Positions 21,822 through 52,690 of a stretch of 64,000 nucleotides of DNA are shown here, piece after piece; positions within the stretch are counted from its first letter, which is position 1; each line of letters starts with the position of its first letter. Location of the stretch: assembly GCF_016222945.1 (NCBI RefSeq), contig NZ_JACRPY010000003.1; one strand, written 5' to 3'. The notes below the pieces were generated by a model. It was given only the letters and a program-made list of their open reading frames with translations, was not told the origin of the DNA and did not search any database. Source of the DNA: Methanobacterium sp. GTDB taxonomy: Archaea; Methanobacteriota; Methanobacteria; Methanobacteriales; Methanobacteriaceae. The translations under genes were made by a program, and so were the position numbers.

Positions 21822-22514
21822 TCACCAGATTCCTGGCAAAATTCTGTATCTGGTTTTCTTTGTGTATTCTTTGTATCCTTCCAGTTCTCTTTGAAGAGTT
21901 TTATCCTCACAATAAGTACGTATAAGGAGCAGTAAAACGATTATAGCAGTGTAAATTAGAGTTAATCCAGAACCAATGATCATTGGAATAGCCAGATGCA
22001 ATAGAATTCCAGAAAGATAACCTGGATGCCTTACTAACCTGTAAGGGCCTGATTCAATGACTTTTTGACCACGATCTTTTTGTATTCTCACTGAAGGTTC
22101 AAAGTAAGGGTTCTTTATCAAAGCCCATACCGCAAGAACCATTGAACCCAGATATAAAATTAGGCCTAATACCATGTACTCTAAGCCAAGGGGCCAGAAA
22201 TTTATGTGGCCTAAATCCCATCCAGCAACAAAAAATTGACCATAAACCCCCAAAATAGTGTAAACTATGAGTATATATTTATCCCAAGTCTTAGTTCCTT
22301 CCTGAAATGCAGAGCCGCCCCTTTTTAAGATAACCTCCGGGTTTAACCGATAAACGATGATGAAACTGGAAATATAATAAATAAAAGTTAAAACGAAGAA
22401 ACCCCATGCTCTGAATATCTCTATCTGCCCTGCAGCAGCAAAGAAAATTATAGCCTGAGCAAGGAGACTTAAAAATAGCCTTAAATTGTAGCGGATAAGA
22501 TTTATTTTCACCAT
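21822..22514 (-). CDS. Isoprenylcysteine carboxyl methyltransferase (ICMT)/PEMT-family membrane methyltransferase
   Basis: ..GPYRLVRHPGYLSGIL.. motif and multiple TM helices. Tandem paralog of the next gene. Confidence 0.8.
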   Translation of the reverse strand: MVKINLIRYNLRLFLSLLAQAIIFFAAAGQIEIFRAWGFFVLTFIYYISSFIIVYRLNPEVILKRGGSAFQEGTKTWDKYILIVYTILGVYGQFFVAGWDLGHINFWPLGLEYMVLGLILYLGSMVLAVWALIKNPYFEPSVRIQKDRGQKVIESGPYRLVRHPGYLSGILLHLAIPMIIGSGLTLIYTAIIVLLLLIRTYCEDKTLQRELEGYKEYTKKTRYRILPGIW

Positions 22515-22592
22515 ATTTTTTATTCCTGATTACTATTGAATAAATTTTATGATACTGTTTTAATCTTTTATTAGTGAAATTAATCCACAATA

Positions 22593-23288
22593 TCACCAGA
22601 TTCCAGGTATTATTCTGTATTTTATTTCATTAGTATACTCTTTATATCCTTCTAATTCTTCCTGTAGAGTCTTATCTTCTAAATATGTTCTTATAAATAG
22701 CGTTACAACAGAAAGTAATGCTGGAATTAATCCCCAAAATGAAGCAAGAACAATTGGAGTAGCTATTGTGAAGATAATCCCTCCCAAATATCCGGGATGT
22801 CTAACAAACCCATAAGGCCCCTCTTTACAAACTGTTTGCTCTCTGTCTTTTTGAATACGCACAACTGATGAAAAGAACTTATTTTCCCTTTTAGCCCATA
22901 ACATGATTATTTGCCCTACAATATATACAAAAGCTGCAGAAATAACAACATAAATAGGAATATGTGGTTCCCATCCAAAACGCCCTGCATCCAAAGCAGA
23001 AATAATGATCATTGCAAAATAAAGAGGTACATTAATGATATAATATATTTTATCCCATTTTTTTGTTCCTTTTCCCGGTTTTAACCTTTCCTGGGTTAAT
23101 TCAGAAGGAATCATGAAATAACTTGCAAGTATAAAGATTACATTCAATCCAATATAAAGCCATCCCTGCCAGTAATAAAAACGCCCTGCACCTATGAAAA
23201 CAAGTGCAAATATTAAAATAAATGCGGAAATATTTCTAAAAAGTAATTTCCTATCTACTTCTTTTTGCTTTCTTTTTTGATTGGTCAT
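22593..23288 (-). CDS. ICMT/PEMT-family membrane methyltransferase (paralog)
   Basis: ..GPYGFVRHPGYLGGIIF... The C-terminus closely matches that of its neighbour (IRTYLEDKTLQEELEGYKEYT..PGIW). Confidence 0.8.
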   Translation of the reverse strand: MTNQKRKQKEVDRKLLFRNISAFILIFALVFIGAGRFYYWQGWLYIGLNVIFILASYFMIPSELTQERLKPGKGTKKWDKIYYIINVPLYFAMIIISALDAGRFGWEPHIPIYVVISAAFVYIVGQIIMLWAKRENKFFSSVVRIQKDREQTVCKEGPYGFVRHPGYLGGIIFTIATPIVLASFWGLIPALLSVVTLFIRTYLEDKTLQEELEGYKEYTNEIKYRIIPGIW

Positions 23289-23861: not shown

Positions 23862-24302
23862 TCATTCTTCTTTTTTTAATTTATCACGTTTTGCTGACGC
23901 CTGGCTTATAAATTCTGCAACCTGATTGATGTCATCGTAAACATCCTCTAAATTGGTTTCTTCGCCTTTAACTGCCGGCGGTTTATAGTCTATGGCGCCT
24001 TCAGCTGAAAAATCATCCTCGCTAATCATGACCCCAAATTTACGCCCGATTTCAGGCTCAATCACATCATCTAAGGGATTTGAAAGCCTTTCCTTGACGT
24101 CAATTTCAAGGCCGGCCATGAGCTCTTCTAATTCTGATTCAACAAACCCTATAACCATGATTTCACGCGGATCGTTCACGTTAAGCGCGGTGTAGAGTTT
24201 GCTTGGAGCTCCAAAGCCCACTGTATGGTACCATGCCCTGCGGAAATCCTGGTATGTTTTACCTTCCCTAAGCCTTCTTGTTATTATGGATACGGTTATC
24301 AT
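23862..24302 (-). CDS. Hypothetical protein
   Basis: Start set at ATG 24302 (MITVSIITRRLREGKTYQDF..) after AAGGAGA. No recognised domain. Confidence 0.5.
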   Translation of the reverse strand: MITVSIITRRLREGKTYQDFRRAWYHTVGFGAPSKLYTALNVNDPREIMVIGFVESELEELMAGLEIDVKERLSNPLDDVIEPEIGRKFGVMISEDDFSAEGAIDYKPPAVKGEETNLEDVYDDINQVAEFISQASAKRDKLKKEE

Positions 24303-24379
24303 AGAATTATCTCCTTTACTGGAGCATATTATGTTTTTTAAATTATTACAACTCATTACAACTCCTATTCTGAATTTAA

Positions 24380-26836
24380 TTATTTTTTAATATTCCAGAA
24401 TATTTCTCCACAGCTACAGCTTAAAGTAGGATCTGATTTTCCTCTATTGACAGATATCATAGAATTACAAGAATTACACATAAATAATCCAAAAAGATTC
24501 TTATATGCTTCAACCACATCTTCAAAATCTTTTTTACTATATTCTGCCCAACGATTATAGTGAACATTTTCATTAATAACCCATTGCTCAATTTGAGCAT
24601 TATTAATTATTTCTTTAGAATTTTTTTCTAAATCTTTAAGATTTTCAAACTTTTCTTTATTTCCAATTTTCTCCGAATTGACTTTTGCTCGCTTAAGATA
24701 TTCCTTATATGTTGATATCGCAGAAGGGGCGAGATCACCTAATTCCCACTGGTGAGTTCCTTTATATGGTATTTTTGCGCTTAAAAAGTCACAAACATTT
24801 TCAAAATACCATTCAGAATTACGTCGAAGCTTATAAGCTGCAGCAGGAATATCGTTTCTATCTAAATCATTCCCAATCTGATCCCATAAATCTTCATCTA
24901 ATTCATAAATTGGCCCTGTATCTATATTCCAATTGAAAAAATGAAGCATATTTCTTTTTGACACTATACCTTGTGTATTTAATTGTTTAGCCCAAGAAGT
25001 ATCATGTGTAGTTATAATAAACTGTTCAGATTTGAAAAACTTGTTAATAAGGTCACAAATTGATTTTCGATGCTCTCTATCAATTGACATTACAACATCA
25101 TCTAAAGCTATGGTTTTAAGACCATTTGCCGAAAGATATTTATTTAGTGCAAAAAATAAGCAGAGCCCCATACTGTCTTGATGACCTTCACTGTGTAGTG
25201 CATTTGGTGGGAACATTCCCTTTCCATAAAAATCAACATCCAATAACAATTCAGCATCATTATGCGATAATTTAGATTTAAATGATTCTTCATCCTCTGA
25301 ATGGAGTTCTTTGTAAAATGTTACAAAGTTATCCTCCAAATCATTATATATTTCCCCAAGAATAATGTCTCTAGACTCATTAAAATATTCTAAAGCTTTT
25401 TGAGCTCTTTTACTAAATAATTGTGCGTTTTCTAATTTTTTAAGTTCTTCAATGTACTTTTTGACTTTTTCTTCCATTTTAGTGAGAGTATCCCACGCTT
25501 TTTGTTGTTCAGATAATTCATCGCCTTTCAATTTTAGAATCTTTTCTAACGGATTTATAATCTGTTCTTCCAAAAACAATTTATTAAATGCTTTTTCAAA
25601 ATCTTCTTTTGGCCATTTACCCTCTTCAAAGTATTTTAAAGGTTCTAACATTATTGTGGACCATTTATTGATGATTATGAAAAAATTTTCTATTTCTTTT
25701 TCATCTATTTCATCAATCTGGAACTGTTCACGTGCCTTTAACAACTTTTTAACATCATCTTTTAATAAATCAGTTTTTTTCTTTATATCTAAAGACAATT
25801 TGCTTATTTTGTCTTTGTTTTCTTTAGATAATTCCATTTCTTTGCTTCTATCTTCTAAATACGATTTAAAATCACCTTCTGTCCATTCTTTACCACATAA
25901 TGGACAGATATTTGTTTTATCAATAATACTGATCCCTGCTTCAAATAATTTTTTATACGCAGAGTAATATCTCAGTTTAGATTCTGTTTTTATGTCTTCA
26001 AAAAGTTTTTTTAACTCTAATTCTTTTAATAAAACATTCGATTTGTCTTCTAATATATTTCTCACACTTTTAATATAATTTTCAACTTGTTCATTTGTCA
26101 AAGCATCTTCTGTTGCTCCTGGAAGATATGGCTCTAAACTAGACTTAATTTCCTCAGGTTGAAGCGATATTATAGGAGTGCCTTTAAATAATGCCCTCAT
26201 ATGATTAATTTTTTCAATTATACTTTCTTCAGAGAACACCTCAACAGAAATAAGCACACATAAATCGTTTTTTGCGATCTCAAAATTACTGGTAGAATTT
26301 TTTAACTCTTTATCTGCTTCAGAATTAACTTTAACAAAATCACGCCTTAAATTACCAATATCATTTAAATCTAATAGGGCAAGTATCTGTTTTTCTCTTT
26401 TACCTGCCTCAGCATTGATAAATTTTAAAATTTCTCTTCTTGAAAGAATATGTTGACCCAGTTTTGCAGTTTCTAAATGTTCTTCTACAATTTTCTTATA
26501 AGAAGTTGGAGAAACCTTTAACGAAGAAGGTTTTGCAAAATTACGCTCTAATAAAACTTCAGAATCATTAAGTAAAATTTTTGCCTTTATAACTACTTTT
26601 TCCGGAGTTTTTATAGAATCAATATGGCCTCCATAACTTGTTATAGGTAAATATTTTGTCCCCTCTCCCATAAACCTAGTCATCTTACCTTTAAGTAAAA
26701 AATCTAGTGAGTCTATTACTGCACTTTTACCTGTTCCATTAGGTCCAAAAATTACTGTGTTGCTACCATTAAGTTCAATATTGGCCTTTTTTATTCCCCT
26801 TATGTTATTAATCTCTAGATTCAATATCTTCATCAT
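24380..26836 (-). CDS. Rad50/SMC-like ABC ATPase with coiled-coil CxxC zinc hook and about 200-aa C-terminal domain (RloC/PrrC-like architecture)
   Basis: 818 aa. Walker A GPNGTGKS (26723..26746). Long Lys/Glu-rich coiled coil with CPLCG at aa 311-315 (25895..25906 for CPLC). Signature-like HSEGHQ, Walker B IALDDV, H-loop ITTHD. C-terminal LRRNSEWYFENV resembles the RRilEnYF motif of AAA_13 anticodon nucleases. Terminal CNSC..CSCG zinc ribbon. Confidence 0.7.
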   Translation of the reverse strand: MMKILNLEINNIRGIKKANIELNGSNTVIFGPNGTGKSAVIDSLDFLLKGKMTRFMGEGTKYLPITSYGGHIDSIKTPEKVVIKAKILLNDSEVLLERNFAKPSSLKVSPTSYKKIVEEHLETAKLGQHILSRREILKFINAEAGKREKQILALLDLNDIGNLRRDFVKVNSEADKELKNSTSNFEIAKNDLCVLISVEVFSEESIIEKINHMRALFKGTPIISLQPEEIKSSLEPYLPGATEDALTNEQVENYIKSVRNILEDKSNVLLKELELKKLFEDIKTESKLRYYSAYKKLFEAGISIIDKTNICPLCGKEWTEGDFKSYLEDRSKEMELSKENKDKISKLSLDIKKKTDLLKDDVKKLLKAREQFQIDEIDEKEIENFFIIINKWSTIMLEPLKYFEEGKWPKEDFEKAFNKLFLEEQIINPLEKILKLKGDELSEQQKAWDTLTKMEEKVKKYIEELKKLENAQLFSKRAQKALEYFNESRDIILGEIYNDLEDNFVTFYKELHSEDEESFKSKLSHNDAELLLDVDFYGKGMFPPNALHSEGHQDSMGLCLFFALNKYLSANGLKTIALDDVVMSIDREHRKSICDLINKFFKSEQFIITTHDTSWAKQLNTQGIVSKRNMLHFFNWNIDTGPIYELDEDLWDQIGNDLDRNDIPAAAYKLRRNSEWYFENVCDFLSAKIPYKGTHQWELGDLAPSAISTYKEYLKRAKVNSEKIGNKEKFENLKDLEKNSKEIINNAQIEQWVINENVHYNRWAEYSKKDFEDVVEAYKNLFGLFMCNSCNSMISVNRGKSDPTLSCSCGEIFWNIKK

Positions 26837-26990
26837 GCTGTTTCCTCAATAATTCTTCAATTTCGGTTCTTTTTGGCTTTTTTTGGGTTACAACAGCAAT
26901 TAAATCACTAGAAATCCCTTTAAACGAAGCATCATTAATTATTTTATCTGCAAATTTATCAAAAATCATTTCCCCCACAGATTTCTTCAT
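26808..26990 (-). CDS. Small (60 aa) protein, translationally overlapping the ABC ATPase gene
   Basis: SD GAGGGA upstream. The 3' end overlaps the ATPase start by 29 nt. No recognised domain. Confidence 0.4.
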   Translation of the reverse strand: MKKSVGEMIFDKFADKIINDASFKGISSDLIAVVTQKKPKRTEIEELLRKQHDEDIESRD

Positions 26991-27362: not shown

Positions 27363-27896
27363 ATGAGCTTTAATTTAGAAAACTTAGATGAAGAAATAAG
27401 AGGGTTAATGTTAGAAGAATTAGACTTAGATATGAAAAATAAGAGATTATACTTAAGTGAAAGACTTAATAATTATGGAAAGTCTGAATATCCTGAAATA
27501 CTTAAAAACGGAATGCTAAAAGGAAACTGTGAAACCTTAGCAGCTGCATTAATACTTGAAAATTATTGGAATGAAAAAGAGCCAAGAAGATCAAAAAAAT
27601 ACGGTTTAAAATATGTAAAGGTTCCCAAAAATGCCCATGAAACACTTGCTGAGGGTGAATTTAATAGATTTTATATACGGGCACTTTGCAGAAAAGCAAT
27701 AATAAATAAAAATGAAATAGAAATTTATAGGGCTAAACAAGTTAGGAACCCACGTAAGGAATCTCAAATAATTATTGGAAAATCATTAGATCCTAAAAAA
27801 CTTTTAGAAGATTTAAGAGTAAAAATTGGAGTAGACACTGTTTTAGGAATGCCTCCAGGACCAAATTCTGGTTTGAGTATACGAATAAAAAAGTAA
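27363..27896 (+). CDS. Hypothetical protein (first gene of divergent two-gene module)
   Basis: 177 aa, AGGTGA SD. Followed 41 nt later by the HNH gene. Confidence 0.5.
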   Translation: MSFNLENLDEEIRGLMLEELDLDMKNKRLYLSERLNNYGKSEYPEILKNGMLKGNCETLAAALILENYWNEKEPRRSKKYGLKYVKVPKNAHETLAEGEFNRFYIRALCRKAIINKNEIEIYRAKQVRNPRKESQIIIGKSLDPKKLLEDLRVKIGVDTVLGMPPGPNSGLSIRIKK

Positions 27897-27937
27897 ATTT
27901 TTCAATAAAATACTTTTAATTCATAAGGAGAGATTCA

Positions 27938-29173
27938 ATGAAGGAATGCTGGTCATGCGGAAATAAAATTGACTCCCATAACACATCAAAAGAACATATA
28001 ATTCCAAACGCTCTTTTTGGCAAGTTAAGATCAAATTATATACTTTGTAAAACATGCAATAGTGAATTTTCTAAAATTGATGAATCTTTAGTAAATGATC
28101 TAGATTCTATATCTATCTTTCTAAATGCCAAAAGAGATAGAGGAGCTTCCAAGCCATTGGGTGCAATGTCTAAAGCTGGGGACCCCTACTTAATAAAACC
28201 CGGAGGCAAAGTAGAAATAAAAACTCAGGTTGATAGAAATGGGAATAATCTAAGTATAAAAGTTTCAAATAAAAAAAAGTTAAAAGAGATAAAAGAGGGA
28301 TTAGGGAAAAAATATACGATTCAGAGTGCTACTAATAAAGAAATAGAAGAATATTTGGGCCCATTAACACTCGAAAACAAGCAGATTTTATCAGATGAAA
28401 CTTTTAGGGCAGCTACAAAAATAGCAAGTAATTTTTATACATATAATGGTTTTTCTAAAGAAAATATTGAATCTATAATTGATTACGTAAAAAACAGCTC
28501 TAATCCAAAAGATATAGCGTGGATTTATTATGGTAAAGATATTTATATCTCAAAAGATAGCTGTGAAGTTTTACATTCAATAATATTAAAAGGAAGTAAA
28601 AAAGAAAGGATTTTATATTGTTATATTGAACTTTATGGTGCCCTTAATTTTTTGGTGTTATTATCTAATGGCTATAAAGGAGAAAATTTTGAAAAAACGT
28701 ATTTTTTTGACATTGAAATGAATAAAGAAGTTGATAAGAACTACGAAATATCTTTAAAAAGGAAAAAAATTGAAAAAATATTAAAAAATCAGAAATTATC
28801 CTCTGTTGAAATTAGTGAAAACATGGGGAAAATAGGAAATAAGCTATTATCAAAAAGAGCGCATGATTATCTCATAGAATTAATATCAGAAACTATGGAA
28901 AGTTACCCGGACCCTGATTTGAAAGATACTTGGGACAAAATCAAGCAAAAACTTGAAAAATATCCTCATTGGGATATTTATGGTTTATGCCCTTATCATG
29001 TAAAAACATGGGATCAAAATGGTCCAGAATGTTCATGTGGCTCTCGAAACTATGTATTTAATTTAATAGGTATGCATATTAAAGGAAACGTAATAGCTAT
29101 CCTTTTACAAACTATTTGTAAAAACTGTGAAAAAATGCTAATTTTTGAATTTAAGACATCTTTATCCATTTAA
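27938..29173 (+). CDS. HNH-endonuclease-domain protein (HNH_5-like N-terminus, C-terminal Cys clusters)
   Basis: N-terminus CWSCGNKIDSHNTSKEHIIPNALFGKLRSNYILCKTCNSEF fits the CxxC..EHiiP..CxxCN HNH pattern. C-terminal CPYH..CSCG..CKNC. SD AAGGAGAG. Confidence 0.6.
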   Translation: MKECWSCGNKIDSHNTSKEHIIPNALFGKLRSNYILCKTCNSEFSKIDESLVNDLDSISIFLNAKRDRGASKPLGAMSKAGDPYLIKPGGKVEIKTQVDRNGNNLSIKVSNKKKLKEIKEGLGKKYTIQSATNKEIEEYLGPLTLENKQILSDETFRAATKIASNFYTYNGFSKENIESIIDYVKNSSNPKDIAWIYYGKDIYISKDSCEVLHSIILKGSKKERILYCYIELYGALNFLVLLSNGYKGENFEKTYFFDIEMNKEVDKNYEISLKRKKIEKILKNQKLSSVEISENMGKIGNKLLSKRAHDYLIELISETMESYPDPDLKDTWDKIKQKLEKYPHWDIYGLCPYHVKTWDQNGPECSCGSRNYVFNLIGMHIKGNVIAILLQTICKNCEKMLIFEFKTSLSI

Positions 29174-29363
29174 TATGCATTTTAATTAATCAAATTATTT
29201 TATTTTTTTTAAGATGCAACACCTTTAAATTTATAGAATTTTCTAGTATATACTTCGTTATAGTCCTCTATAACGATCTAATATCAAGACATTTTTTTAG
29301 AATATTTTAATTAATATTAATCTATATTTATTAAACAAGCTAGTTTGATGGAGGAATTACAAT

Positions 29364-29855
29364 ATGGAATCATTTCCAGAATATATGCTTGAATATAGAA
29401 AACAGATAGAGAAGGGTTACATACAGGAGGCATATAAAGGATTGATGGAATATATAATGGGTTTAAGAGTGCATTTTAAAAATAAATATCCAAAATATTT
29501 CGTATCAAGTATTTATTATGGATATATGGACATGACCTATTTTTCTTTTTCCCCAGAATCATTAAAACGTCGGAAATTGAAAATCGCAATAGTTTTTATC
29601 CATGATACATTTAGATTTGAAGTCTGGTTGGCTGGATCTAATAAAAAGGTTCAAAATGAATACTGGAAATTTTTTAAAGACATGAATTGGGATAAATACC
29701 ACATTCCATCAACAATAAAAGGCATTGATTCTATTGTGGAACATATTCTAGTTGAAAATCCAGATTTCAGTGATTTAGATACTTTAACAGGACAAATAGA
29801 GACGGTTACATTGAACTTCATTAATGATGTTGAGAACTTCTTATCTAAACATTAA
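29364..29855 (+). CDS. Hypothetical protein
   Basis: 163 aa, SD GGAGGA, no recognised motif. Confidence 0.5.
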   Translation: MESFPEYMLEYRKQIEKGYIQEAYKGLMEYIMGLRVHFKNKYPKYFVSSIYYGYMDMTYFSFSPESLKRRKLKIAIVFIHDTFRFEVWLAGSNKKVQNEYWKFFKDMNWDKYHIPSTIKGIDSIVEHILVENPDFSDLDTLTGQIETVTLNFINDVENFLSKH

Positions 29856-43793: not shown

Positions 43794-46700
43794 GTGAAAA
43801 ACATAAAAAAACAAACAACTACAAAAATTCTCATTTCTATTATCTTTATCATCGCTTCATTAACATTAATAGGTGCTGTTTCGGCAGCAGATACAAATTT
43901 AACTGATAATCCATCTGATTCTGTTTCTTCAGATGACCTTGCCTTTATAGAAATTTCAGGTCAAGTCAACCAATGTTCTAATGGAGAACCTTTCCCCGGA
44001 GCAACAGTAAAAGTCCATGATAATGGGACAGAGATTGCCAGTACCACCACAAATCCCGATGGGACTTACAATTTTAATTTCCAAAGCAAAAAGCGAGTTT
44101 TCACAGTAACAGCCAATGCCAACGGACACAAACCATCAACTCAGGAAGTTACGGTTGTTGAAAACTCCGATGGTACTTACACAGGAACATCAGATTTCAA
44201 ACTGGGAGCTAACGACGCCTACGTCTGGAATGGATGGGCTTCAGATCCTACTCATGATATTACTTTCTCTGATACTACCACAATTAATGGAAATGCACCT
44301 AATGCTCGAACTACTATACAAGCAGGTATAGATCACGCTGAACTTACTGGAAGCACAGTATACATAGCACCCAGCACTTACTATGAACACAACTTGGTTA
44401 TCGACAACCCAGTTACAATACACGGTGAAAACATGGGCTCAACCATAATTGACGGCCAAAATGGACGTATATTCTATATAACTGCTTCAAATGTCAATAT
44501 ACAACAACTAACACTTACCCATGGAAATGCTCTTGCCTATGGTGGAGCTATCCTCACGGTTAGTGGAACCGTAAACATATCTAATACCATTTTTGATCGT
44601 AACTATGTAACTAACTATGGCGGAGCTATCTACAACAATGGTGGAACATTAACCATATTAAACAGTGCATTTTATAGTAATGGCGCAGGTGACTTTGGTG
44701 GAGCAATCTGCAACAATGGTGGAACAGTAACCATACCAGGCAGCACATTCGACAGTAACACGGCACCAAATGGTGGTGGCGGAGCCATCTACAACACAGG
44801 AACATTAGACATAAACACCAGCACATTCCAAAATAACGAAGCATTTAGTGGTAATGGCGGAGCCATCTACAATGATGGAGGAACAGTAACCATAGGTACA
44901 GGCAGCACATTCACAGGCAACAGAGTAAATAATCCGGGTTATAGCGGTGGAGCTATCTACAACACTAATGACGGGAGGGTGTTCATATCAGGCACCACAT
45001 TCAACAGTAATTATGCACAACATGGTAATGGTGGAGCCATCTACAACAATGATGGAACCGTAAACATATTCGAAAGCAGCACTTTCGACCATAACGAAGT
45101 ATCTGATGGTTATGGTGGAGCCATCTACAATTCTAATAGTGGAGCAGTAAACATACTTGACTATGGTATAATCAATAGGTTCATCAATAACAGCGCAGGG
45201 ATTGGTGGAGCGATCGCCAATTTTGGAATGATAGATATATCCCACTCTGCATTCGGCGATATATCTGAGGGTAACACCGCAAATTATGGTGGAGCTATCT
45301 ACAATAGTGGAACCGTAAACATGTCAGGCAGCACATTCACTGATAACACCGTAAACATTGATGGTGGAGCTATCTACAACAATGTTGGTGGAACCGTAAA
45401 CATAGGTGCAGGCAGCACATTCACACACAACTCTGCAAATTATGATGGGGGAGCCATCTACAATGTTAATGGTGGAACCGTAGAGATATACAGCGGCACA
45501 TTCGACAATAACCACACAAATGGTGGTGATGGTGGAGCTATCTACAATACTGGAACTGCAAACATATACGACAGCACATTCACAGACAACCATGCATATC
45601 ATGATTTTGGTGATTGTTATGGTGGAGCTATCTTCAACACTAGAACGTTAAGAATAGACAGCAGCACATTCACAGGCAACAGGGCTTCATTCGATGGTGG
45701 TGGTGGAGCTATCTACAATGCCGGGACAGCAGACATATTTGGCGGCACCCTATTCGACGGTAACACCGCATCAAGTGGTTATGGTGGAGCAATCTACAAC
45801 ACTAGTATAATGAACATATCATGCGCAACATTCACAGGCAACAGGGCAGTAGATGAGTTTATGGGGTGGCAGCTTTGTTATGGTGGTGCCATTTATAATA
45901 ATGGTGGAAACATCCTAATATGGAATTCCCCTAATTCATTTAACGGTAACAGCGCAAGTGGTGGTGGTGGAGCCATCTACAACAATGGTGGAACAGTAAC
46001 TATATTCGGCGGCTGCGCATTCAACGGTAACGCCGCAACTGATCCTATATCCGGGTATGGTGGAGCCATCTACAACAATCGTGGAACAGTAAACATAAGA
46101 GGCACTAGCGCATTCAACGGTAACACCGCAACACGTGATGGTGGAGCAATCTACAACACTGTTGGTGGAAATATAGACTTTTCATGCGACGAACTCACAT
46201 TTATTAATAATAGAGCAACAACTACTTATGGGGGAGCCATCTACAATAATGGCGGAACTGTAACCATATCTAGCGATGCACTCGGCACTAAATTTGAGGG
46301 TAACACTGCAGGAACTAATGGTGGAGCTATCTACAACACTGTTGGTGGAATAGTAACCATTTCAGACACAACATTTACCAGTAACTCCGCATTGAATGGT
46401 GGGGCTATCAACAACAATGCAGGTGGAACAGTAACCCTATCTAACACCTCATTTATCAATAATGCTGCAACGACAGGTTATGCTGGGGCCATCTACAATA
46501 GTGGAACACTAAACATATCCGGCAGCAGCACATTCACAGGCAACACTTCATTCGGTGGTGATGGTGGAGCCATCTACAATACCGGAACCGTCGGAATATC
46601 TGGCAGTACATTCACAAACAACCATACAAATATTCCTTTAACAAATACAGGTGGCGGAGCTATCTACAACACCAGTAGTGGAACCGTAAACATATCAAGC

Positions 46701-48890
46701 TCCAATTTCACAAGTAACACGTCAGATGGTGATGGTGGAGCTATCCACAACACCGGTAGTGGAACCGTAAACATATCAAGCACCAATTTCACAAGTAACA
46801 CGTCAGATGGTTTTGGTGGGGCCATCTACAACACCGGTAGTGGAACCGTAAACATAACAGGTACCAACACTTTCACCAGTAGCTCATCATCACAAGGAGG
46901 AGCTATCTACAATAATGGCGGAACTGTAACCATATCCGGAACCACATTCAACAGTAACACTGCCACATTCGGTCCTGGTGGAGCTATCCACAACTCAGGG
47001 ACAGTGAACATAACAGGTACCAACACATTCACAGGTAACACTGCAATAAATAGTTATGGTGGAGCTATATACAATATGGGTGGAACTGTAACCATATCCG
47101 GCAGCAGCATTCTCACCGGTAACTCCGCAATAAATGGTGGAGCCATATATAATGATGTTGGAGCCGTTACCTTATCAGGCACCGCATTTAATGGTAACAC
47201 TGCGACAAGTTACGGTGGAGCTATCTACAACCATGCTGGAACACTAAACATATCTGGCATAAATTCATTCAACACCAACAGCGCAACAAGCGGTGGAGGA
47301 GCAATCTACAACACGGGCACAGTAACCCTAACAGGCACTAACACATTCGCCAGTAACGATGCATATGGTTATGGTGGGGCTATCAACAATGCTGGAACAC
47401 TAAACATATCAGGCACCAACACATTCAATGGTAACACTGCAAATGTGGGTGGAGCCATCTGCAATGATGGTGGATCTGTAACCATATCCGGAACCACATT
47501 CAACAGTAACGGCGCATGGATAGCTGGTGGAGCAATCTACAACCGTTCAGGAAGATTAGATATAACTGACAGCACATTCACCAACAACAATTCTTCAAAT
47601 GATTGGTTGATAGCTGTTGGTGGTGGAGCAATCTACAACGAGGCTGGAATTGTAACCATATCTGGTACCACTTTCACCGGTAACTATGCAGGTATTCATT
47701 CTGGCGGAGCTATCTACAACCATGCTGGAACAGTAACCATATCAAACGCCACATTTATTAATAATAGAGCAACGAATGTTGGTAATGGTGGGGCTGTTTT
47801 TACCGATGGAAATGGAGATATACAGATACATTTCAGCCGCATCTTAAACAACCCCGGAGTTGACATTTACAGCACTGGAACCAATGTTGATGCCACCAAA
47901 AATTGGTTTGGTGATAACTTTATAGGAACCAACCCTATAGCAGAAGGAAGAGCAACATCCAACATAATTGTGGATCCATGGGTTATTCTAACCGTTACTG
48001 CAAACCCAACAACCATTACCAATGGTGGAACATCCATTATTACAGCTGATTTCAACCACATCAACGGTGGTGGCGCACTTACAGGCGGACACATTCCCGA
48101 CGGGCCCATAACTTTAGGCATACCATGGGGAAGCTTCCAAAACCCAGCAATCACCCATTCAATCACAGCAAATACTGTAGACGGCGCAATAACAACAACA
48201 TTCTACTCCAATGAAGGACCAGTAAACCCATTATACAATCCAGTTAAGGTAACAGCAGCAGCAGATGGTTACACAACAGACACAGAATCTGCATTTATCA
48301 ACATCAACAAAGACGTAAAATTAACAGTTACCCAGACAGTTAATAAACCAAGGCCACATGTTGGAGATAAAGTCACATTCACAGTCAAAGTTCAAAACAA
48401 TGGGATAGACGCTGGAACAAACATCCAGATACGAGATATAATGCCATCTGGCTTTAATAACGTTGTAATAACTCCATCTAAAGGAACATATGACAATACT
48501 TCTGGAATCTGGACACTATACCTTTTAAGTGGTGAAACAGCAACTTTAACCCTCACCGGTGAAGTCACAGAAGCTCTAGTTGGTAAAACCACAACTAACA
48601 TTGCAACAATCCCCGGAACAACAAGCTCAGCAAGTTCAAGCATCTACGTACCTAAAGCAGGAACTATAACAGTACATGCAGCAACAGTAAACAAAAACAC
48701 AGCAAACGGACTGATAACACCCAAAGACATAACATCTAAAGTAACTCCAGATCCATACAAAGATACACCACAAGAAACACTTGGAAACTGGTTACTCTCA
48801 TACTGGTGGATAATACTAGCAATTCTGCTTCTAATAGCAGGCAGGCTACTCTGGTTCTTGTTAGCAGCTAAAAGAGAAACCGAAGAATAG
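43794..48890 (+). CDS. Giant adhesin-like surface protein with PMP-type (GGAIYN) beta-helix repeats, DUF11-like domain and C-terminal TM anchor
   Basis: 1698 aa. Signal peptide, dozens of ..GGAIYN..G.. repeats, ..VGDKVTFTVKVQNNG.. (DUF11-like), and terminal ..GNWLLSYWWIILAILLLIAGRLLWFLLAAKRETEE. The start codon is uncertain: GTG 43794 lies inside the SD, and the in-frame ATA at 43803 is an alternative. Confidence 0.85.
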   Translation: MKNIKKQTTTKILISIIFIIASLTLIGAVSAADTNLTDNPSDSVSSDDLAFIEISGQVNQCSNGEPFPGATVKVHDNGTEIASTTTNPDGTYNFNFQSKKRVFTVTANANGHKPSTQEVTVVENSDGTYTGTSDFKLGANDAYVWNGWASDPTHDITFSDTTTINGNAPNARTTIQAGIDHAELTGSTVYIAPSTYYEHNLVIDNPVTIHGENMGSTIIDGQNGRIFYITASNVNIQQLTLTHGNALAYGGAILTVSGTVNISNTIFDRNYVTNYGGAIYNNGGTLTILNSAFYSNGAGDFGGAICNNGGTVTIPGSTFDSNTAPNGGGGAIYNTGTLDINTSTFQNNEAFSGNGGAIYNDGGTVTIGTGSTFTGNRVNNPGYSGGAIYNTNDGRVFISGTTFNSNYAQHGNGGAIYNNDGTVNIFESSTFDHNEVSDGYGGAIYNSNSGAVNILDYGIINRFINNSAGIGGAIANFGMIDISHSAFGDISEGNTANYGGAIYNSGTVNMSGSTFTDNTVNIDGGAIYNNVGGTVNIGAGSTFTHNSANYDGGAIYNVNGGTVEIYSGTFDNNHTNGGDGGAIYNTGTANIYDSTFTDNHAYHDFGDCYGGAIFNTRTLRIDSSTFTGNRASFDGGGGAIYNAGTADIFGGTLFDGNTASSGYGGAIYNTSIMNISCATFTGNRAVDEFMGWQLCYGGAIYNNGGNILIWNSPNSFNGNSASGGGGAIYNNGGTVTIFGGCAFNGNAATDPISGYGGAIYNNRGTVNIRGTSAFNGNTATRDGGAIYNTVGGNIDFSCDELTFINNRATTTYGGAIYNNGGTVTISSDALGTKFEGNTAGTNGGAIYNTVGGIVTISDTTFTSNSALNGGAINNNAGGTVTLSNTSFINNAATTGYAGAIYNSGTLNISGSSTFTGNTSFGGDGGAIYNTGTVGISGSTFTNNHTNIPLTNTGGGAIYNTSSGTVNISSSNFTSNTSDGDGGAIHNTGSGTVNISSTNFTSNTSDGFGGAIYNTGSGTVNITGTNTFTSSSSSQGGAIYNNGGTVTISGTTFNSNTATFGPGGAIHNSGTVNITGTNTFTGNTAINSYGGAIYNMGGTVTISGSSILTGNSAINGGAIYNDVGAVTLSGTAFNGNTATSYGGAIYNHAGTLNISGINSFNTNSATSGGGAIYNTGTVTLTGTNTFASNDAYGYGGAINNAGTLNISGTNTFNGNTANVGGAICNDGGSVTISGTTFNSNGAWIAGGAIYNRSGRLDITDSTFTNNNSSNDWLIAVGGGAIYNEAGIVTISGTTFTGNYAGIHSGGAIYNHAGTVTISNATFINNRATNVGNGGAVFTDGNGDIQIHFSRILNNPGVDIYSTGTNVDATKNWFGDNFIGTNPIAEGRATSNIIVDPWVILTVTANPTTITNGGTSIITADFNHINGGGALTGGHIPDGPITLGIPWGSFQNPAITHSITANTVDGAITTTFYSNEGPVNPLYNPVKVTAAADGYTTDTESAFININKDVKLTVTQTVNKPRPHVGDKVTFTVKVQNNGIDAGTNIQIRDIMPSGFNNVVITPSKGTYDNTSGIWTLYLLSGETATLTLTGEVTEALVGKTTTNIATIPGTTSSASSSIYVPKAGTITVHAATVNKNTANGLITPKDITSKVTPDPYKDTPQETLGNWLLSYWWIILAILLLIAGRLLWFLLAAKRETEE

Positions 48891-48930
48891 ATAAAATTCT
48901 TCCTCAATTTTTTTATTTTTTTTATTAATC

Positions 48931-49096
48931 TAGTTAAGTATTAATGATAGCAAAAACTAACTCTTTTTGAATAACACACTTACAAACTAATTAAACTAAA
49001 TTCCATTTAAAACTGAAATATTTTATTAACTAAACATAAAGGAGCCTACAAAATTTACAATTTTGTGGCCCAAAAAATTCAAAGAATTTTTAGGAG
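48931..49096 (+). promoter_or_regulatory. Conserved adhesin-gene leader, copy 2 (palindrome at 49048..49066)
   Basis: Matches copy 1 closely but lacks the roughly 60-nt internal segment present in copies 1 and 3. Confidence 0.5.
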
Positions 49097-52000
49097 GTGA
49101 AAAAGATAAAAAACCAAGTAATTACAATTAAAACTAACTTTTTAATTTTACCACTCCTTTTAAGCTTAACAATACTGTTTTGCGCAAGTAGTGTTTCTGC
49201 TGCAGATGGTGATATAATTTACGTGAATAACAACATCGGGGATGACTCATATGACGGTTTTAATTCAATATACGACCCCATAACCAATCACGGGCCAAAA
49301 TTATCCATTAAAAACGCAACAGGAACCGTAAACACAGATGGAACAGTTCAATTAGCTGATGGAGGATACACTGGAGTAAACAACACTGGAATCACAATTG
49401 ACAGGAGCATGAAAATCATTGGCGAAAGCCAGAGTGGAACTGTAATTAATGCCCAAAGATTAGGCCGTATATTCAGGATTGAACCTGGAATCACAGTCAC
49501 CCTGGAAAACATAACACTTGCAAACGGAGAGTCATCACGTGGCGGGCAAATCTGGAATAGAGGTACCTTAAACTTAATCAACTGCACACTCACAGGAGGA
49601 CGGGCAGATGGAGGCGGATCCATCCAAAATACAGGTGTTCTAAATGTCACCGACTGCACATTCACTGGAAACGACGCTGCAAAATATAGAGATGGAGGAG
49701 ACTATAAGGGTGGAGCTATCCTCAATTATGGAACATTAATCATCAATAACAGCACATTCACCGGTAATTACGCATGTTATGGTGGAGCTATCGAAAACTA
49801 CTGTACTTTTGGCACTACAACTGCTGATATAACTAACTGCACATTCACCGGTAACTACCTCTACTTAAGAACACCTACATTTGATTTTGGTGGTGGTGGT
49901 GAGGGTGGTGCCATCTACAATCATTGCAATTACGGCACTATCAATGTTAATTTAACCAACTGCACATTCACCCGTAATGAAGCATTATGTGGTGGAGCCA
50001 TCTGTAGCTTTAGTGAACATAGTGGTAGCACTATAAATCTTAACCTAAATAACTGCACATTCACAGATAACCGTGTAGGATTTGATTCGGATGGATTGGG
50101 AGGTCTTGGTGGAGCCATCAAAAATACTGCCCGTCAAGACGGTACTGCCACTTTAACTGTAATTAACAGTACATTCACCGGTACATCCATAGAATACAGC
50201 GCATTATATGGTGGAGCTATATTCAATTCAGGTGTAGATGGTGGAAATGCCCCTCTTACTGTAATTGGAAGCACGTTCAAAGACAACAAAGTTACATTTT
50301 TTGACCTTATAGGGGCAGGTGGCTTAGGTGGAGCAATATGCAATGAAGCTGATTATAGCGGTATTGCCAATATGGATATAACTGACAGCACATTCACAGG
50401 TAACTACGCAAGTTATGGTGGTGGGGCTATCTTTACCCATGCACTTGAGTTAGGCACCTCCATTGCCCATGTGAATTTCAACAGGTTCTTTGGTAATACC
50501 TTAGACCCTACATACGGTCATGGTACAACAATTTGTAAAGGCACCTACGGTACAGTCGATGCAGATAATAATTGGTGGGGAACTAACACTCCTGATTTCA
50601 GCCAGTTACTATATCAAATACCAGATCCTGATTCCTGGCTGGTGATGAACGCCATAGCAAACCCCCTATCAATTCAAGTGGGAGACACATCAACCGTAAC
50701 AGCAACTATAGAATCTTACAACAAAAATTCTGGCCTATATAGTCCTGTAGTGCATTGTGCGCCAATACCTGCAATTTTTACAGCAACTCTCGGAAATATG
50801 GATCCTGAATCCACATTAATAATACCTAACCTAGGTATTGATCAGGTTAAATCCATATTCACATCAACCCAGCAAGGTACAGCAGCTCTTACTGCAAAAG
50901 TTGATGATGAAACCGTTGCATTTTCAATACAAGCTGACATCACCCCAACAACCCTAACAGTAGGTGATGTAGTGGGTTGTTATGGTAACACTGCAACTTT
51001 TACCGCCATATTAAAAAATGATTTAGGCCAACCCGTAGTTGGTGAAGAAGTCAATTTCTCGGTAGATTTGGGTTATATAGGACACGGCACTACCGATAAT
51101 ACAGGGACAGCAACCCTAAACTATCCACTTAACTTCGGCATCGGCCATCACGCCATTACAGCAGTCTTCCATGATGACATCTACAAATACTTACCCAGCG
51201 GAGGAACAGGGAATCTAATTGTAAATATAAACCCTACAACAACTACTGTTGATAATGTACACAATTTCGCAGGTCAAAATGTGAATTTAGTGGCCCATGT
51301 AGTTGACAGCGAAAGTAAAGCAGTAAACAGTGGGCAGGTTAGATTCACTGTGGGCAGTGCTACTCCCATAGTTGCCAATGTTGTTGGCGGCTTAGCTACA
51401 GTTACTGGTTGGACTATTCCATCTGACTGGCTTCCAGGAACTTACAACATAGTTGCTGAATACCTTGGAAACACCAACTACACTGCATCAACCAATACAG
51501 GTGTTCTGACTGTGGATCAGACCCCTACTAACGTTGTTGTAGATAATACACACAACTTCGCAGGTCAAAATGTGAATTTGGTTGCTCATGTGACTAGTCC
51601 TTATGGTTCAGTTAACGAGGGACTGGTTAGGTTCACTGTAATCGGCCCTGATGATATCTCTGTTCCTGTAGGAGACATAAACGTTGCTAGCGGAGTAGCT
51701 TCCACCACTTGGACAATTCAGTCTGCTTGGAACACTGGAAACCATAGATTATACGCTGAATACCTTGGATCCCCCGTCTACCTTGGATCACTTAATTCAG
51801 GAACTCTAACTGTGGATAGGACTCCTACTACTTTAACTGTAAGCGATATAACCAGTGATAAAGGTATTAATGTAGATTTGAAGGCTACTTTGCTTGATTA
51901 CTATGGTAATCCTGTTTCTGGTAAATCTGTTACCTTTAAAGTGAATGGTGTGGATGTTCCGGGTTCTGCAATTACAGGTGCTGATGGTGTGGCTACAATG

Positions 52001-52690
52001 CCGTATACCATTAATCTTGTGGGTGGAACCTATAACATAGAAGCGACATTTGCTGATACAGACACTCAATATATCGGTTCTACTGGAACTGGCTCACTTA
52101 AAGTACCACAATCAAGCGTTTTCGTTAAAACCACAGTAAGCAACACTAACCCTATAGTAGGTCAAACAGTAACCATAACATTCAAATTAGGAAATAACGG
52201 ACCTGATGCAGCCAAAAATATAGTGTTTACTTATGTTTTACCTGCAGAAATGGAATTAGCGAACCTCAGCGGTGACAACAACTACTCATACGACCCAGCG
52301 ACTCGAACCATAACCTGGAAGATTGATGAAGTGCCAGCAGGCACTGATCCTTGGCTCTACGCCAATGTGAGGTTCTTAAACGCAGGAAACTTCAACATCA
52401 AACCAACCATAAACCTGGCAACATACGACCCAAACATAAACAGCAACATACAATCTGTAGTAATTAACGCAAAAGCTGTTCCTGTAAGAGTTAACGCAGC
52501 AACAGTAACAGGAAACGGGCGGACTGTAACATCTGGAGCCGCTCCATATTCCCCAGGAACCACACCTGAAGGAACATCTGGAAACTGGTTATTATCCTAC
52601 TGGTGGATAATACTACTACTGCTTCTGATAATCTTTGGAGCGTTGATATGGTTCCTATTAGCAACTAAACAAGGAGAAACTGAGGGATAA
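49097..52690 (+). CDS. Adhesin-like surface protein: PMP-type repeats, tandem Ig-like (Big) domains, DUF11-like domain, C-terminal TM anchor
   Basis: 1197 aa. Signal peptide, CTFTGN../GGAI.N repeats, repeated roughly 95-aa Ig-like modules (..HNFAGQNVNLVAHV.. twice), ..VGQTVTITFKLGNNGPD.., and terminal ..GNWLLSYWWIILLLLLIIFGALIWFLLATK... Confidence 0.85.
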   Translation: MKKIKNQVITIKTNFLILPLLLSLTILFCASSVSAADGDIIYVNNNIGDDSYDGFNSIYDPITNHGPKLSIKNATGTVNTDGTVQLADGGYTGVNNTGITIDRSMKIIGESQSGTVINAQRLGRIFRIEPGITVTLENITLANGESSRGGQIWNRGTLNLINCTLTGGRADGGGSIQNTGVLNVTDCTFTGNDAAKYRDGGDYKGGAILNYGTLIINNSTFTGNYACYGGAIENYCTFGTTTADITNCTFTGNYLYLRTPTFDFGGGGEGGAIYNHCNYGTINVNLTNCTFTRNEALCGGAICSFSEHSGSTINLNLNNCTFTDNRVGFDSDGLGGLGGAIKNTARQDGTATLTVINSTFTGTSIEYSALYGGAIFNSGVDGGNAPLTVIGSTFKDNKVTFFDLIGAGGLGGAICNEADYSGIANMDITDSTFTGNYASYGGGAIFTHALELGTSIAHVNFNRFFGNTLDPTYGHGTTICKGTYGTVDADNNWWGTNTPDFSQLLYQIPDPDSWLVMNAIANPLSIQVGDTSTVTATIESYNKNSGLYSPVVHCAPIPAIFTATLGNMDPESTLIIPNLGIDQVKSIFTSTQQGTAALTAKVDDETVAFSIQADITPTTLTVGDVVGCYGNTATFTAILKNDLGQPVVGEEVNFSVDLGYIGHGTTDNTGTATLNYPLNFGIGHHAITAVFHDDIYKYLPSGGTGNLIVNINPTTTTVDNVHNFAGQNVNLVAHVVDSESKAVNSGQVRFTVGSATPIVANVVGGLATVTGWTIPSDWLPGTYNIVAEYLGNTNYTASTNTGVLTVDQTPTNVVVDNTHNFAGQNVNLVAHVTSPYGSVNEGLVRFTVIGPDDISVPVGDINVASGVASTTWTIQSAWNTGNHRLYAEYLGSPVYLGSLNSGTLTVDRTPTTLTVSDITSDKGINVDLKATLLDYYGNPVSGKSVTFKVNGVDVPGSAITGADGVATMPYTINLVGGTYNIEATFADTDTQYIGSTGTGSLKVPQSSVFVKTTVSNTNPIVGQTVTITFKLGNNGPDAAKNIVFTYVLPAEMELANLSGDNNYSYDPATRTITWKIDEVPAGTDPWLYANVRFLNAGNFNIKPTINLATYDPNINSNIQSVVINAKAVPVRVNAATVTGNGRTVTSGAAPYSPGTTPEGTSGNWLLSYWWIILLLLLIIFGALIWFLLATKQGETEG

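Follow-up and report, generated by a model that had tools for sequence, protein, structure and literature searches.

A mobile two-gene module of a zinc-hook ABC ATPase with a probable divergent HEPN/RloC-type C-terminal domain and a small acidic partner in Methanobacterium

We analysed a 64,000-nucleotide (nt) stretch of DNA from Methanobacterium sp. (contig NZ_JACRPY010000003.1, hereafter the window), in which two overlapping genes on the minus strand encode an 818-residue ATP-binding cassette (ABC) ATPase and a 60-residue acidic protein. The ATPase combines a split ABC head and a coiled coil tipped by a zinc hook with a C-terminal extension that is probably a divergent HEPN/RloC-type putative nuclease domain, and the two genes travel together as a module found in both bacteria and archaea. 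The features of the locus, with residues numbered on the 818-residue protein, are the following.

24380-26836, minus strand: main gene, an 818-residue ABC ATPase with zinc hook, HEPN-like domain and zinc ribbon (open reading frame, Pfam, conservation, AlphaFold).
26808-26990, minus strand: small partner gene, a 60-residue acidic helical protein (open reading frame; homologues upstream of relatives of the ATPase).
26723-26746, minus strand: Walker A motif (P-loop) GPNGTGKS, residues 31-38; G31, N33, G34, G36, K37 and S38 invariant.
25301-26407, minus strand: coiled-coil insert that splits the ABC head, residues ~144-512 (AlphaFold helices; Foldseek matches to Rad50/SMC).
25895-25906, minus strand: zinc hook CPLC, C311-C314, at the coiled-coil apex; C311, P312 and C314 invariant.
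25178-25195, minus strand: ABC signature HSEGHQ, residues 548-553; S549-D554 invariant.
25079-25114, minus strand: Walker B motif and D-loop TIALDDVVMSID (IALDDVVMSID); D579, D580, S584 and D586 invariant.
25001-25015, minus strand: H-loop, or switch histidine, ITTHD (H611); T609, T610 and H611 invariant.
24482-24919, minus strand: C-terminal helical domain, residues ~640-785, probably of divergent HEPN/RloC type (structural model, RloC profile, sister branch).
24794-24829, minus strand: putative catalytic block 1 LRRNSEWYFENV (LRRNSEWYF), with R671 and E675 as R-x3-E (invariance; RloC alignment).
24602-24781, minus strand: helical insert of ~45-60 residues between the two blocks (model helices 699-723 and 727-747; spacer comparison).
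24548-24589, minus strand: putative catalytic block 2 EQWVINENVHYNRW (QWVINENVH), with W752, N755 and H759 (W752 and H759 invariant; His-to-His alignment).
24383-24481, minus strand: Cys4 zinc ribbon CNSC...CSCG, with C787, C790, C807 and C809 (cysteines invariant; structural model).

The 3' end of the 60-residue open reading frame (ORF) overlaps the start of the ATPase gene by 29 nt, as an earlier reading of the sequence (the original prediction) had described. A GAGGG Shine-Dalgarno sequence lies upstream of the small ORF, and the Shine-Dalgarno-like sequence of the ATPase gene sits within the small ORF itself, with GAGGA placed 6 nt before the first ATG. The ATPase is 100% identical to a protein from a Methanobacterium metagenome-assembled genome (MAG) that is annotated merely as 'AAA family ATPase'. 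The NCBI version of the protein has 814 residues and starts four codons past the first ATG (window 26825-26836); because M2 is near-invariant among family members and GAGGA precedes the first ATG at 6 nt, this deposited start is, judging from the sequence, probably too short.

Gene neighbourhoods were compared at 81 loci, namely 80 that were fetched together with the window. In 78 of them, a same-strand ORF of 58-80 residues ends at or overlaps the ATPase start, most commonly through a 4-nt ATGA overlap (29 loci). Homologous to one another, these small ORFs have a median length of 67 residues, a median isoelectric point of 4.9 and a helical pattern, and they are also present in the divergent branches represented by loci L082, L083, L084 and L086. 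The ~65-residue acidic protein is a conserved, translationally coupled partner of the ATPase. The original prediction had drawn attention to the small ORF, whose conservation beside homologues is borne out by these counts, and had called the ATPase 'stand-alone', a description that has to give way to that of a two-gene module. Elsewhere in these neighbourhoods, clustering of the 666 flanking ORFs yields 599 clusters, the largest of which, a phage integrase, occurs at 10 of the 81 loci, and the small ORF is the sole conserved neighbour of the ATPase. Sampled neighbours include HsdM, D12 and N6_N4 methylases, AbiEi/AbiEii and a serine recombinase, along with AIPR, SNF2 helicases, DUF6079 and HEPN_Swt1+DUF499.

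Searches with the 60-residue partner in Pfam, PADLOC and NCBIfam returned no match. Against the PDB, the small-partner profile gave summed weak matches (E ~1e-5) to designed armadillo-repeat proteins, with no single stretch significant, and we set this likeness aside as compositional, probably arising from helical repeats. On a Hymenobacter plasmid (L083, 2662-2901), a 79-residue ORF that overlaps the ATPase start by 26 nt is absent from the RefSeq annotation; public genome annotation probably underreports the small partner. At locus L085 (1162-5325), which belongs to the branch with a canonical HEPN motif described below, the small partner is missing; what overlaps the ATPase start is an AbiEii gene, and genes for AbiEi_3 and an SNF2 helicase lie upstream.

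A search of about 5.8 billion proteins recovered more than 120 full-length homologues of ~818 residues, bacterial and archaeal, at 36-63% identity, and a profile of the C-terminal domain alone matched 831 clusters at 50% identity. Among the best 150 matches to this profile, the domain always lies at the C-terminus of a protein of ~815-830 residues, or else in a fragment, and the architecture is therefore fixed. In GTDB, relatives occur in 426 of 185,579 species representatives, distributed patchily over bacteria and archaea. The archaeal carriers comprise many Methanobacteriaceae, Methanomicrobia, haloarchaea, Bathyarchaeia and one Asgard MAG, while the bacterial carriers span many phyla. The expectation that such a protein would be unusual in a methanogen was consequently wrong, as many Methanobacteriaceae, Methanomicrobia and other archaea carry the module.

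The closest relatives of the Methanobacterium ATPase are found in Planctomycetota, Omnitrophota and Bathyarchaeia (55-62% identity), whereas the copies of other Methanobacteriaceae share 35-38% identity with it, indicating horizontal transfer. About 20 members are plasmid-borne, in Rhizobiales, Rhodobacterales, Sphingomonas and haloarchaea. Since the partner is kept while the other neighbours vary, since copies occur on plasmids and since relatives cross phyla, the ATPase and the small gene are a self-contained, horizontally mobile two-gene module. Members of the family are annotated as 'AAA family ATPase', 'RecF' or 'SbcC', or carry an orphan 'LmuB' match, and no description of the two-gene module was found in the annotations, defence databases and literature searched, which did not cover the ABC-ATPase classification of Krishnan et al. 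2020.

Variants of the gene content were seen on plasmids. The linear plasmid of Streptomyces sp. CLI2509 (L081, 3101-4822) encodes a 573-residue form, lacking the hook and the long coiled coil, which retains a canonical RNAVGAH motif and the Cys4 ribbon. Plasmid p195_2 of Bradyrhizobium sp. 195 (L086, 1904-5326) has three genes, a 75-residue ORF, an 827-residue ATPase (CPVC hook, R-x3-E, G-S-H and Cys4) and an overlapping gene for a 239-residue 'DCL family protein'; this three-gene variant has a DNA methyltransferase, AbiEi/AbiEii and SbcD on its flanks.

Turning to the ATPase itself, the split ABC head with GPNGTGKS, HSEGHQ, IALDDV and ITTHD lies where the original prediction had placed it, and the motif set of the 818-residue ORF is far beyond chance. 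We judged the invariance of residues over 62 diverse full-length homologues. Walker A, C311, P312, C314, S549-D554, D579/D580 and H611 are invariant in 62 of 62, as are R671, E675, W752, H759, C787, C790, C807 and C809 within the last 200 residues. The CPLC at 25895-25906, which had been read as a Rad50-type hook, therefore belongs to an invariant CxxC, and it appears as CPLC, CPVC or CPFC in divergent branches. Walker B has 'DD', not 'DE'. In a full-length AlphaFold model (predicted local distance difference test, pLDDT, 83), the head is split by a long helical insert that has coiled-coil helices at residues 158-196, 248-292, 337-371 and 443-512 and a hook loop at 305-320; at the C-terminus, a helical domain is followed by a small beta ribbon.

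Comparison with known families places the head and coiled coil closest to Rad50. Of the Pfam models that the original prediction had proposed for a search, SMC_N and AAA_23 exceed their gathering thresholds on the ATPase, and AAA_13 gives no match at E <= 1. In Foldseek, the full model matches Rad50 first (E 1e-12 to 1e-10) and SMC heads next, with the LmuB structures 9hqx (rank 13) and 9uxh also among the matches. The family profile matches Rad50 heads in the PDB and, weakly and at residues 305-372, the Rad50 zinc-hook structures 1l8d and 6zff; weak Rad50_zn_hook Pfam matches are seen in some homologues as well, and the CP[LV]CG hook resembles that of Rad50.

Rad50/SbcC is thus the best structural neighbour of this part of the protein, and a housekeeping repair or chromosome-maintenance ATPase (Rad50/SbcC, RecF or RecN-like), with a DNA-binding or regulatory C-terminal domain, has to be considered. 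Beyond the structural matches to Rad50 and SMC, such a role would agree with the RecF and SbcC annotations that homologues carry at source and with weak NCBIfam P-loop matches to RecF, RecN and Rad50; RecF also has a DD Walker B. The NCBIfam scores, however, are far under their cut-offs, at 40.8 against 172 for RecF and 16-20 bits against 700-1087 for Rad50. Unlike Rad50/SbcC, the ATPase has a shorter coiled coil, DD rather than DE, an added HEPN-like domain and ribbon, and no Mre11/SbcD partner: in the window, as originally predicted, no Mre11/SbcD, HerA or NurA gene is adjacent, and none of these was seen in the recurrent neighbour clusters or the sampled neighbours of the 81 loci. The patchy occurrence in 426 of 185,579 species representatives, the plasmids and integrases and the transfer-like phylogeny also argue against housekeeping, and the invariant R/E/H set of the C-terminal domain fits nuclease motifs. 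We consider this explanation very unlikely and, on scores, neighbours and motifs, reject a Rad50/Mre11 repair role.

The C-terminal extension of ~200 residues that had been predicted, with LRRNSEWYFENV and a CNSC..CSCG ribbon, is present, and the four cysteines of the ribbon are invariant. AlphaFold models the C-terminal domain as an all-helical bundle (pLDDT 85) and the ribbon as three short beta strands. The ribbon fold matches RPB9/RPC10, TFIIB and eIF5 zinc ribbons weakly and locally (~33 residues, root-mean-square deviation 2.8 A), and sparse zinc-ribbon Pfam matches (E up to 10) are confined to this terminal ribbon. Near the top of the Foldseek results for the helical domain, the sole natural small helical protein is the HEPN protein 2q00 (PaREP1-type; E = 3.4, template modelling scores 0.27/0.41).

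The HEPN motif R-x4-6-H, in which the Arg is followed by a polar residue, closes helix 3, and the published rule for the fold calls for an acidic position in helix 2 together with a His where helix 3 ends (PMC3710099). HEPN RNases are metal-independent and usually dimeric when active (PMC3710099). In our model, E675 lies in a long helix (663-685) and H759 just past the following long helix, with an extra helical element between them, a predicted topology that fits the HEPN rule.

The clearest indication of the identity of this domain comes from a sister branch of the family, found via tblastn on plasmids and a homologue search seeded from one relative. Its 51 sequences carry R-N-x-V-G-[AC]-H aligned on H759, a textbook HEPN motif, and have Gly at the position of R671 ('A-G-[VI]-L-L-E'). 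Overall, R671 without an Arg before H759 is found in 245 sequences and the canonical Arg in 48, while none has both; E675 and H759 are kept in nearly all sequences of both branches. Since R671 strictly excludes the canonical Arg and vice versa, the alignment is best explained by one active site, whose catalytic Arg would have been relocated to the neighbouring helix. This complementarity, together with the R-N-x4-H of the sister branch at H759, makes it probable that the C-terminal domain is a divergent HEPN/RloC-type putative nuclease domain. ABC ATPases with a C-terminal HEPN domain have been reported in mobile or defence contexts as the APECO1_4465 and ERFG_01251 families (PMC3710099). The ATPase resembles these by description only, the sister branch having the classical R-N-x4-H, and the plasmid search found no enterobacterial relatives of the ATPase.

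R671, E675 and H759 would make up an R-x3-E...H triad of the kind typical of RloC and PrrC. RloC is an anticodon nuclease that excises the wobble nucleotide. Three features define it, namely ABC motifs, a coiled coil bearing a CXXC hook, and the triad Arg-X3-Glu-X36-52-His, with the His often preceded by Ser (PMC2610378). As a reference we used the 746-residue RloC of a Shewanella sp. ANA-3 plasmid (L093, 30255-32495), which is listed in Table S1 of PMC2610378 and scores 594.9 bits against AAA_13 over profile positions 1-713 and 884 bits against the PADLOC model PDC-S06. The two proteins are alike in layout and size, with a hook near residue 300 (CPFC in the Shewanella protein, CPLC in the ATPase) and a C-terminal nuclease or nuclease-like domain of ~150-200 residues. 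Their signatures read LSEGE and HSEGHQ, with SEG in common, and their Walker B/D-loop segments read VVVIDDPISSLD and IALDDVVMSID, both with DD. Block 1 reads MRRIIENYF in the Shewanella protein and LRRNSEWYF in the ATPase, and block 2 reads YWINDGSH and QWVINENVH, respectively; the blocks are colinear, and both proteins have R-x3-E...H without a proximal Arg. The distribution of RloC is patchy and mobile, often near restriction-modification (R-M) systems, and that of the ATPase family is likewise patchy and mobile.

Genuine RloC proteins read RRI[IL]ENYF and then sW[vi]NDGSH, and the likeness to 'RRilEnYF' that the original prediction cited was accurate. From an alignment of RloC nuclease domains (20 non-redundant sequences from 29 metagenomic RloC loci and the Shewanella protein) we obtained a hidden Markov model (HMM), scored with HMMER alongside 3,020 shuffled, composition-matched decoys. 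The ATPase scored 11.1 bits (P = 1.5e-5), whereas the highest of the 3,020 decoys reached 9.2, and 56% of 302 family C-termini exceeded the decoy 99th percentile; the best family member reached 20.9 bits (E = 1.4e-8), and the alignment pairs the two His residues. The RloC/PrrC likeness first proposed for this domain is upheld by the colinear blocks and the HMM score, with weak results from hhalign and the reciprocal search (see below), and homology of the C-terminal domain to the RloC nuclease domain is probable but not proven.

Several differences set the ATPase apart from RloC. The spacer between Glu and His is 83 residues long in the ATPase, compared to 36-52 in RloC (PMC2610378) and 38 in the Shewanella protein, the difference being due to a helical insert of about 45 residues. 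The ATPase ends in the Cys4 ribbon, whereas RloC ends in a ...HYNMMMGE tail with 0-2 Cys in the last 70 residues, and the conserved small acidic partner has no counterpart at RloC loci. In addition, the ATPase head scores better with the SMC_N, AAA_23 and LmuB models than with AAA_13. Homologues reach 25-39.5 bits against AAA_13 (gathering threshold 36), only up to profile position 602, and the nuclease part of that profile covers positions of about 600-713. A search seeded with blocks of the G. kaustophilus RloC, taken by optical character recognition from the 2008 supplement, returned no matches. In terms of its sequence, the family is a distant RloC-like group of ABC-zinc-hook proteins with a putative HEPN domain, outside AAA_13 as modelled, the PADLOC PDC-S06 and PrrC models, Lamassu and Rad50/SbcC.

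PrrC also joins an ABC N-domain to a C-terminal HEPN-type anticodon nuclease with R-x3-E...H, the triad being R320, E324 and H356 (PMC2610378). Unlike the ATPase, PrrC has ~400 residues, lacks the coiled coil and hook and is always found in an hsd locus; it cleaves the anticodon of tRNA-Lys and is kept silent by the type Ic R-M system EcoprrI.

In PADLOC, the best model on the ATPase is LmuB PDLC03859 (E = 1.7e-25, residues 1-617), and the full-protein search gave no match to the PrrC model. This top match raises the alternative of a compact Lamassu-type (ABC-3C) system, in which the ATPase is LmuB, the small protein is LmuC-like and the fused domain replaces LmuA and might act on DNA. In Lamassu (ABC-3C, DdmABC), LmuB has a zinc hook, the small LmuC is bound at the hook and the effector is inactive until DNA is sensed (bioRxiv 10.1101/2025.03.14.643221). 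The module similarly pairs a hook-bearing SMC-like ATPase with a small accessory protein, and LmuB structures are among its fold matches, as noted above. However, PDLC03859 also matches genuine RloC (E = 4e-12), and because RloC is matched as well as the ATPase, PDLC03859 is not specific but generic to SMC-like proteins with a hook, and could give rise to orphan 'LmuB' calls. Lamassu has a separate LmuA, whereas the putative effector of the module is fused and has motifs resembling RloC and HEPN RNases, and no LmuA-like linked gene was found among the recurrent neighbours in the 666 flanking ORFs. Moreover, Walker B has DD as in RloC, not the E-to-Q reported for LmuB, and the ~65-residue partner is much smaller than LmuC, has no sequence relation to it and has no detected similarity to anything. 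We regard a Lamassu-type system as improbable, and membership in canonical Lamassu is rejected on the same grounds of scores, neighbours and motifs.

The arrangement of the two genes also recalls toxin-antitoxin (TA) or addiction modules, in which case the small acidic protein would be the labile antitoxin of a HEPN toxin, with no dedicated virus sensing. The small acidic gene comes first and is coupled to the ATPase by a translational overlap, the family occurs on plasmids, AbiE TA modules are found as neighbours, and HEPN toxins are common in TA systems (PMC3710099). A simple TA pair would, however, hardly account for an ATPase portion of 620 residues whose hook is invariant and whose catalytic motifs are intact, and locus L085 is entirely without the small gene. 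RloC, moreover, is self-silenced and has no antitoxin (PMC3458546). Taken together, a TA pair appears distinctly improbable.

We favour, with moderate confidence, a mobile two-gene conflict module that would most likely provide abortive infection against viruses or plasmids, working in an RloC-like manner. The original prediction of an abortive-infection/tRNA-targeting defence ATPase is supported to that extent, none of the refuting conditions given with it having come true. Defence, abortive infection and tRNA targeting are suggested here by analogy and context, and RNase activity of the HEPN-like domain by analogy with RloC, whose ATPase is DNA-dependent and whose mechanism is the source of the comparison (PMC2610378, PMC3458546). 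In such a scheme, two protomers would dimerise via the zinc hook, and the ATPase head would sense a DNA cue, which may be ends, damage or invading DNA, as does the DNA-dependent ATPase of RloC. ATP-driven head engagement would then turn the silenced HEPN domains into a composite, probably dimeric, metal-independent RNase. This putative RNase would cut an essential RNA, plausibly tRNA anticodon loops, so that translation would halt in the infected cell. The small acidic partner may be an antitoxin-like inhibitor of the nuclease, or may stabilise the resting state at the hook or coiled coil in the manner of LmuC, which stabilises a folded resting state in Lamassu (bioRxiv 10.1101/2025.03.14.643221). 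The zinc ribbon would probably bind nucleic acid or help to pair the nuclease domains.

A number of results weigh against this RloC-like scheme. The C-terminal domain has no significant match to any Pfam HEPN family, to the nuclease part of AAA_13, to PADLOC models or to PDB sequences, and Foldseek searches of its model against the PDB and BFVD returned nothing significant (best E 1.7). With hhalign, the GP...LW...RRxxExYF block was aligned to RloC at E = 0.017 and a probability of 2.7%, the alignment ending at the insert, and a second colinear block (AFKdLF against VFKkIF) gave E = 0.093. The reciprocal HMM was weak, placing 1 of 20 RloC sequences above the decoy 99th percentile, and the matches of the C-terminal half of the ATPase to the PADLOC PDC-S06 and PrrC models are limited to the signature/Walker B segment and do not reach the nuclease region. 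The ATPase has I-N-E-N-V-H, without the canonical Arg of R-x4-6-H, and its catalytic competence would hinge on the relocation of that Arg. The flanks in the window contain no classical defence gene other than one for an HNH_5 protein, and the target RNA and activating signal would be assigned purely by analogy.

These points lead to a further possibility, that the C-terminal domain is a dead HEPN-like scaffold, binding only RNA or protein, and the whole protein a sensor or regulator. The missing R-x4-6-H Arg in the query branch and the lack of a fold or Pfam match would accord with this, and some HEPN domains are non-catalytic (PMC3710099). Against it, R671, E675 and H759 are invariant in 245 sequences, and the strict alternation of R671 with the canonical Arg suggests that selection maintains an Arg at this site. 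The R-x3-E...H arrangement without a proximal Arg is also that of RloC, whose nuclease activity is proven. A dead scaffold therefore seems exceedingly unlikely to us, and we retain a putatively active nuclease domain in the favoured reading of an RloC-like conflict module.

Around the module, the GC content is 0.294 at 23.3-33.3 kb, compared to 0.348 for the whole window. The island context invoked by the original prediction proved its weakest part: the low GC and orphan neighbours (HNH_5, DUF7000) agree with an island, but neither an integrase nor an R-M system lies near the module in the window. On the plus strand and divergent from the module, positions 27363-29855 encode a 177-residue ORF, a 411-residue HNH_5 protein with Cys-rich ends and a DUF7000 protein; these genes share the low-GC stretch with the module and may form a defence or mobile gene set of their own. 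A 164-residue ORF (23862-24356, also minus strand) follows the ATPase gene after 24 nt and has no family match. We considered it as a third component and rejected it, as it is conserved beside no homologue in other loci; it is probably outside the module. Farther away, positions 21822-23288 (minus strand) encode two tandem paralogous membrane proteins of ~230 residues each with a common '...VRHPGYL...' motif, which by eye are like isoprenylcysteine/phospholipid methyltransferase-type proteins and are unrelated to the module, and the higher-GC part of the window contains two very large ORFs of 1698 and 1197 residues (43794-52690, plus strand).

To our knowledge, no characterised protein other than RloC links a Rad50-like sensor of DNA breaks directly to a nuclease that destroys tRNA, and how RloC is regulated is still poorly understood. 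The family described here would be a distinct relative of RloC that is much more widely distributed and is missed by current tools, and its two additions, a translationally coupled mini-protein and a terminal zinc ribbon, are directly testable. Tentatively, at a likelihood that we place a little short of even, the module may be an unnamed, widespread two-gene immune system of bacteria and of archaea, among them methanogens, haloarchaea and Asgard archaea, in which a small acidic protein and a Rad50-like zinc-hook ATPase gate a HEPN RNase on a DNA cue, the family bridging the canonical HEPN and the RloC/PrrC active sites. If active, it would join a small number of candidates for RNA-targeting abortive infection in methanogens, a group in which defence against viruses has been little explored. 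The canonical and relocated Arg of the sister branches offer a natural experiment on the HEPN active site, and, if this reading is true, these branches would document the relocation of a catalytic Arg and tie the RloC/PrrC nucleases firmly to HEPN.

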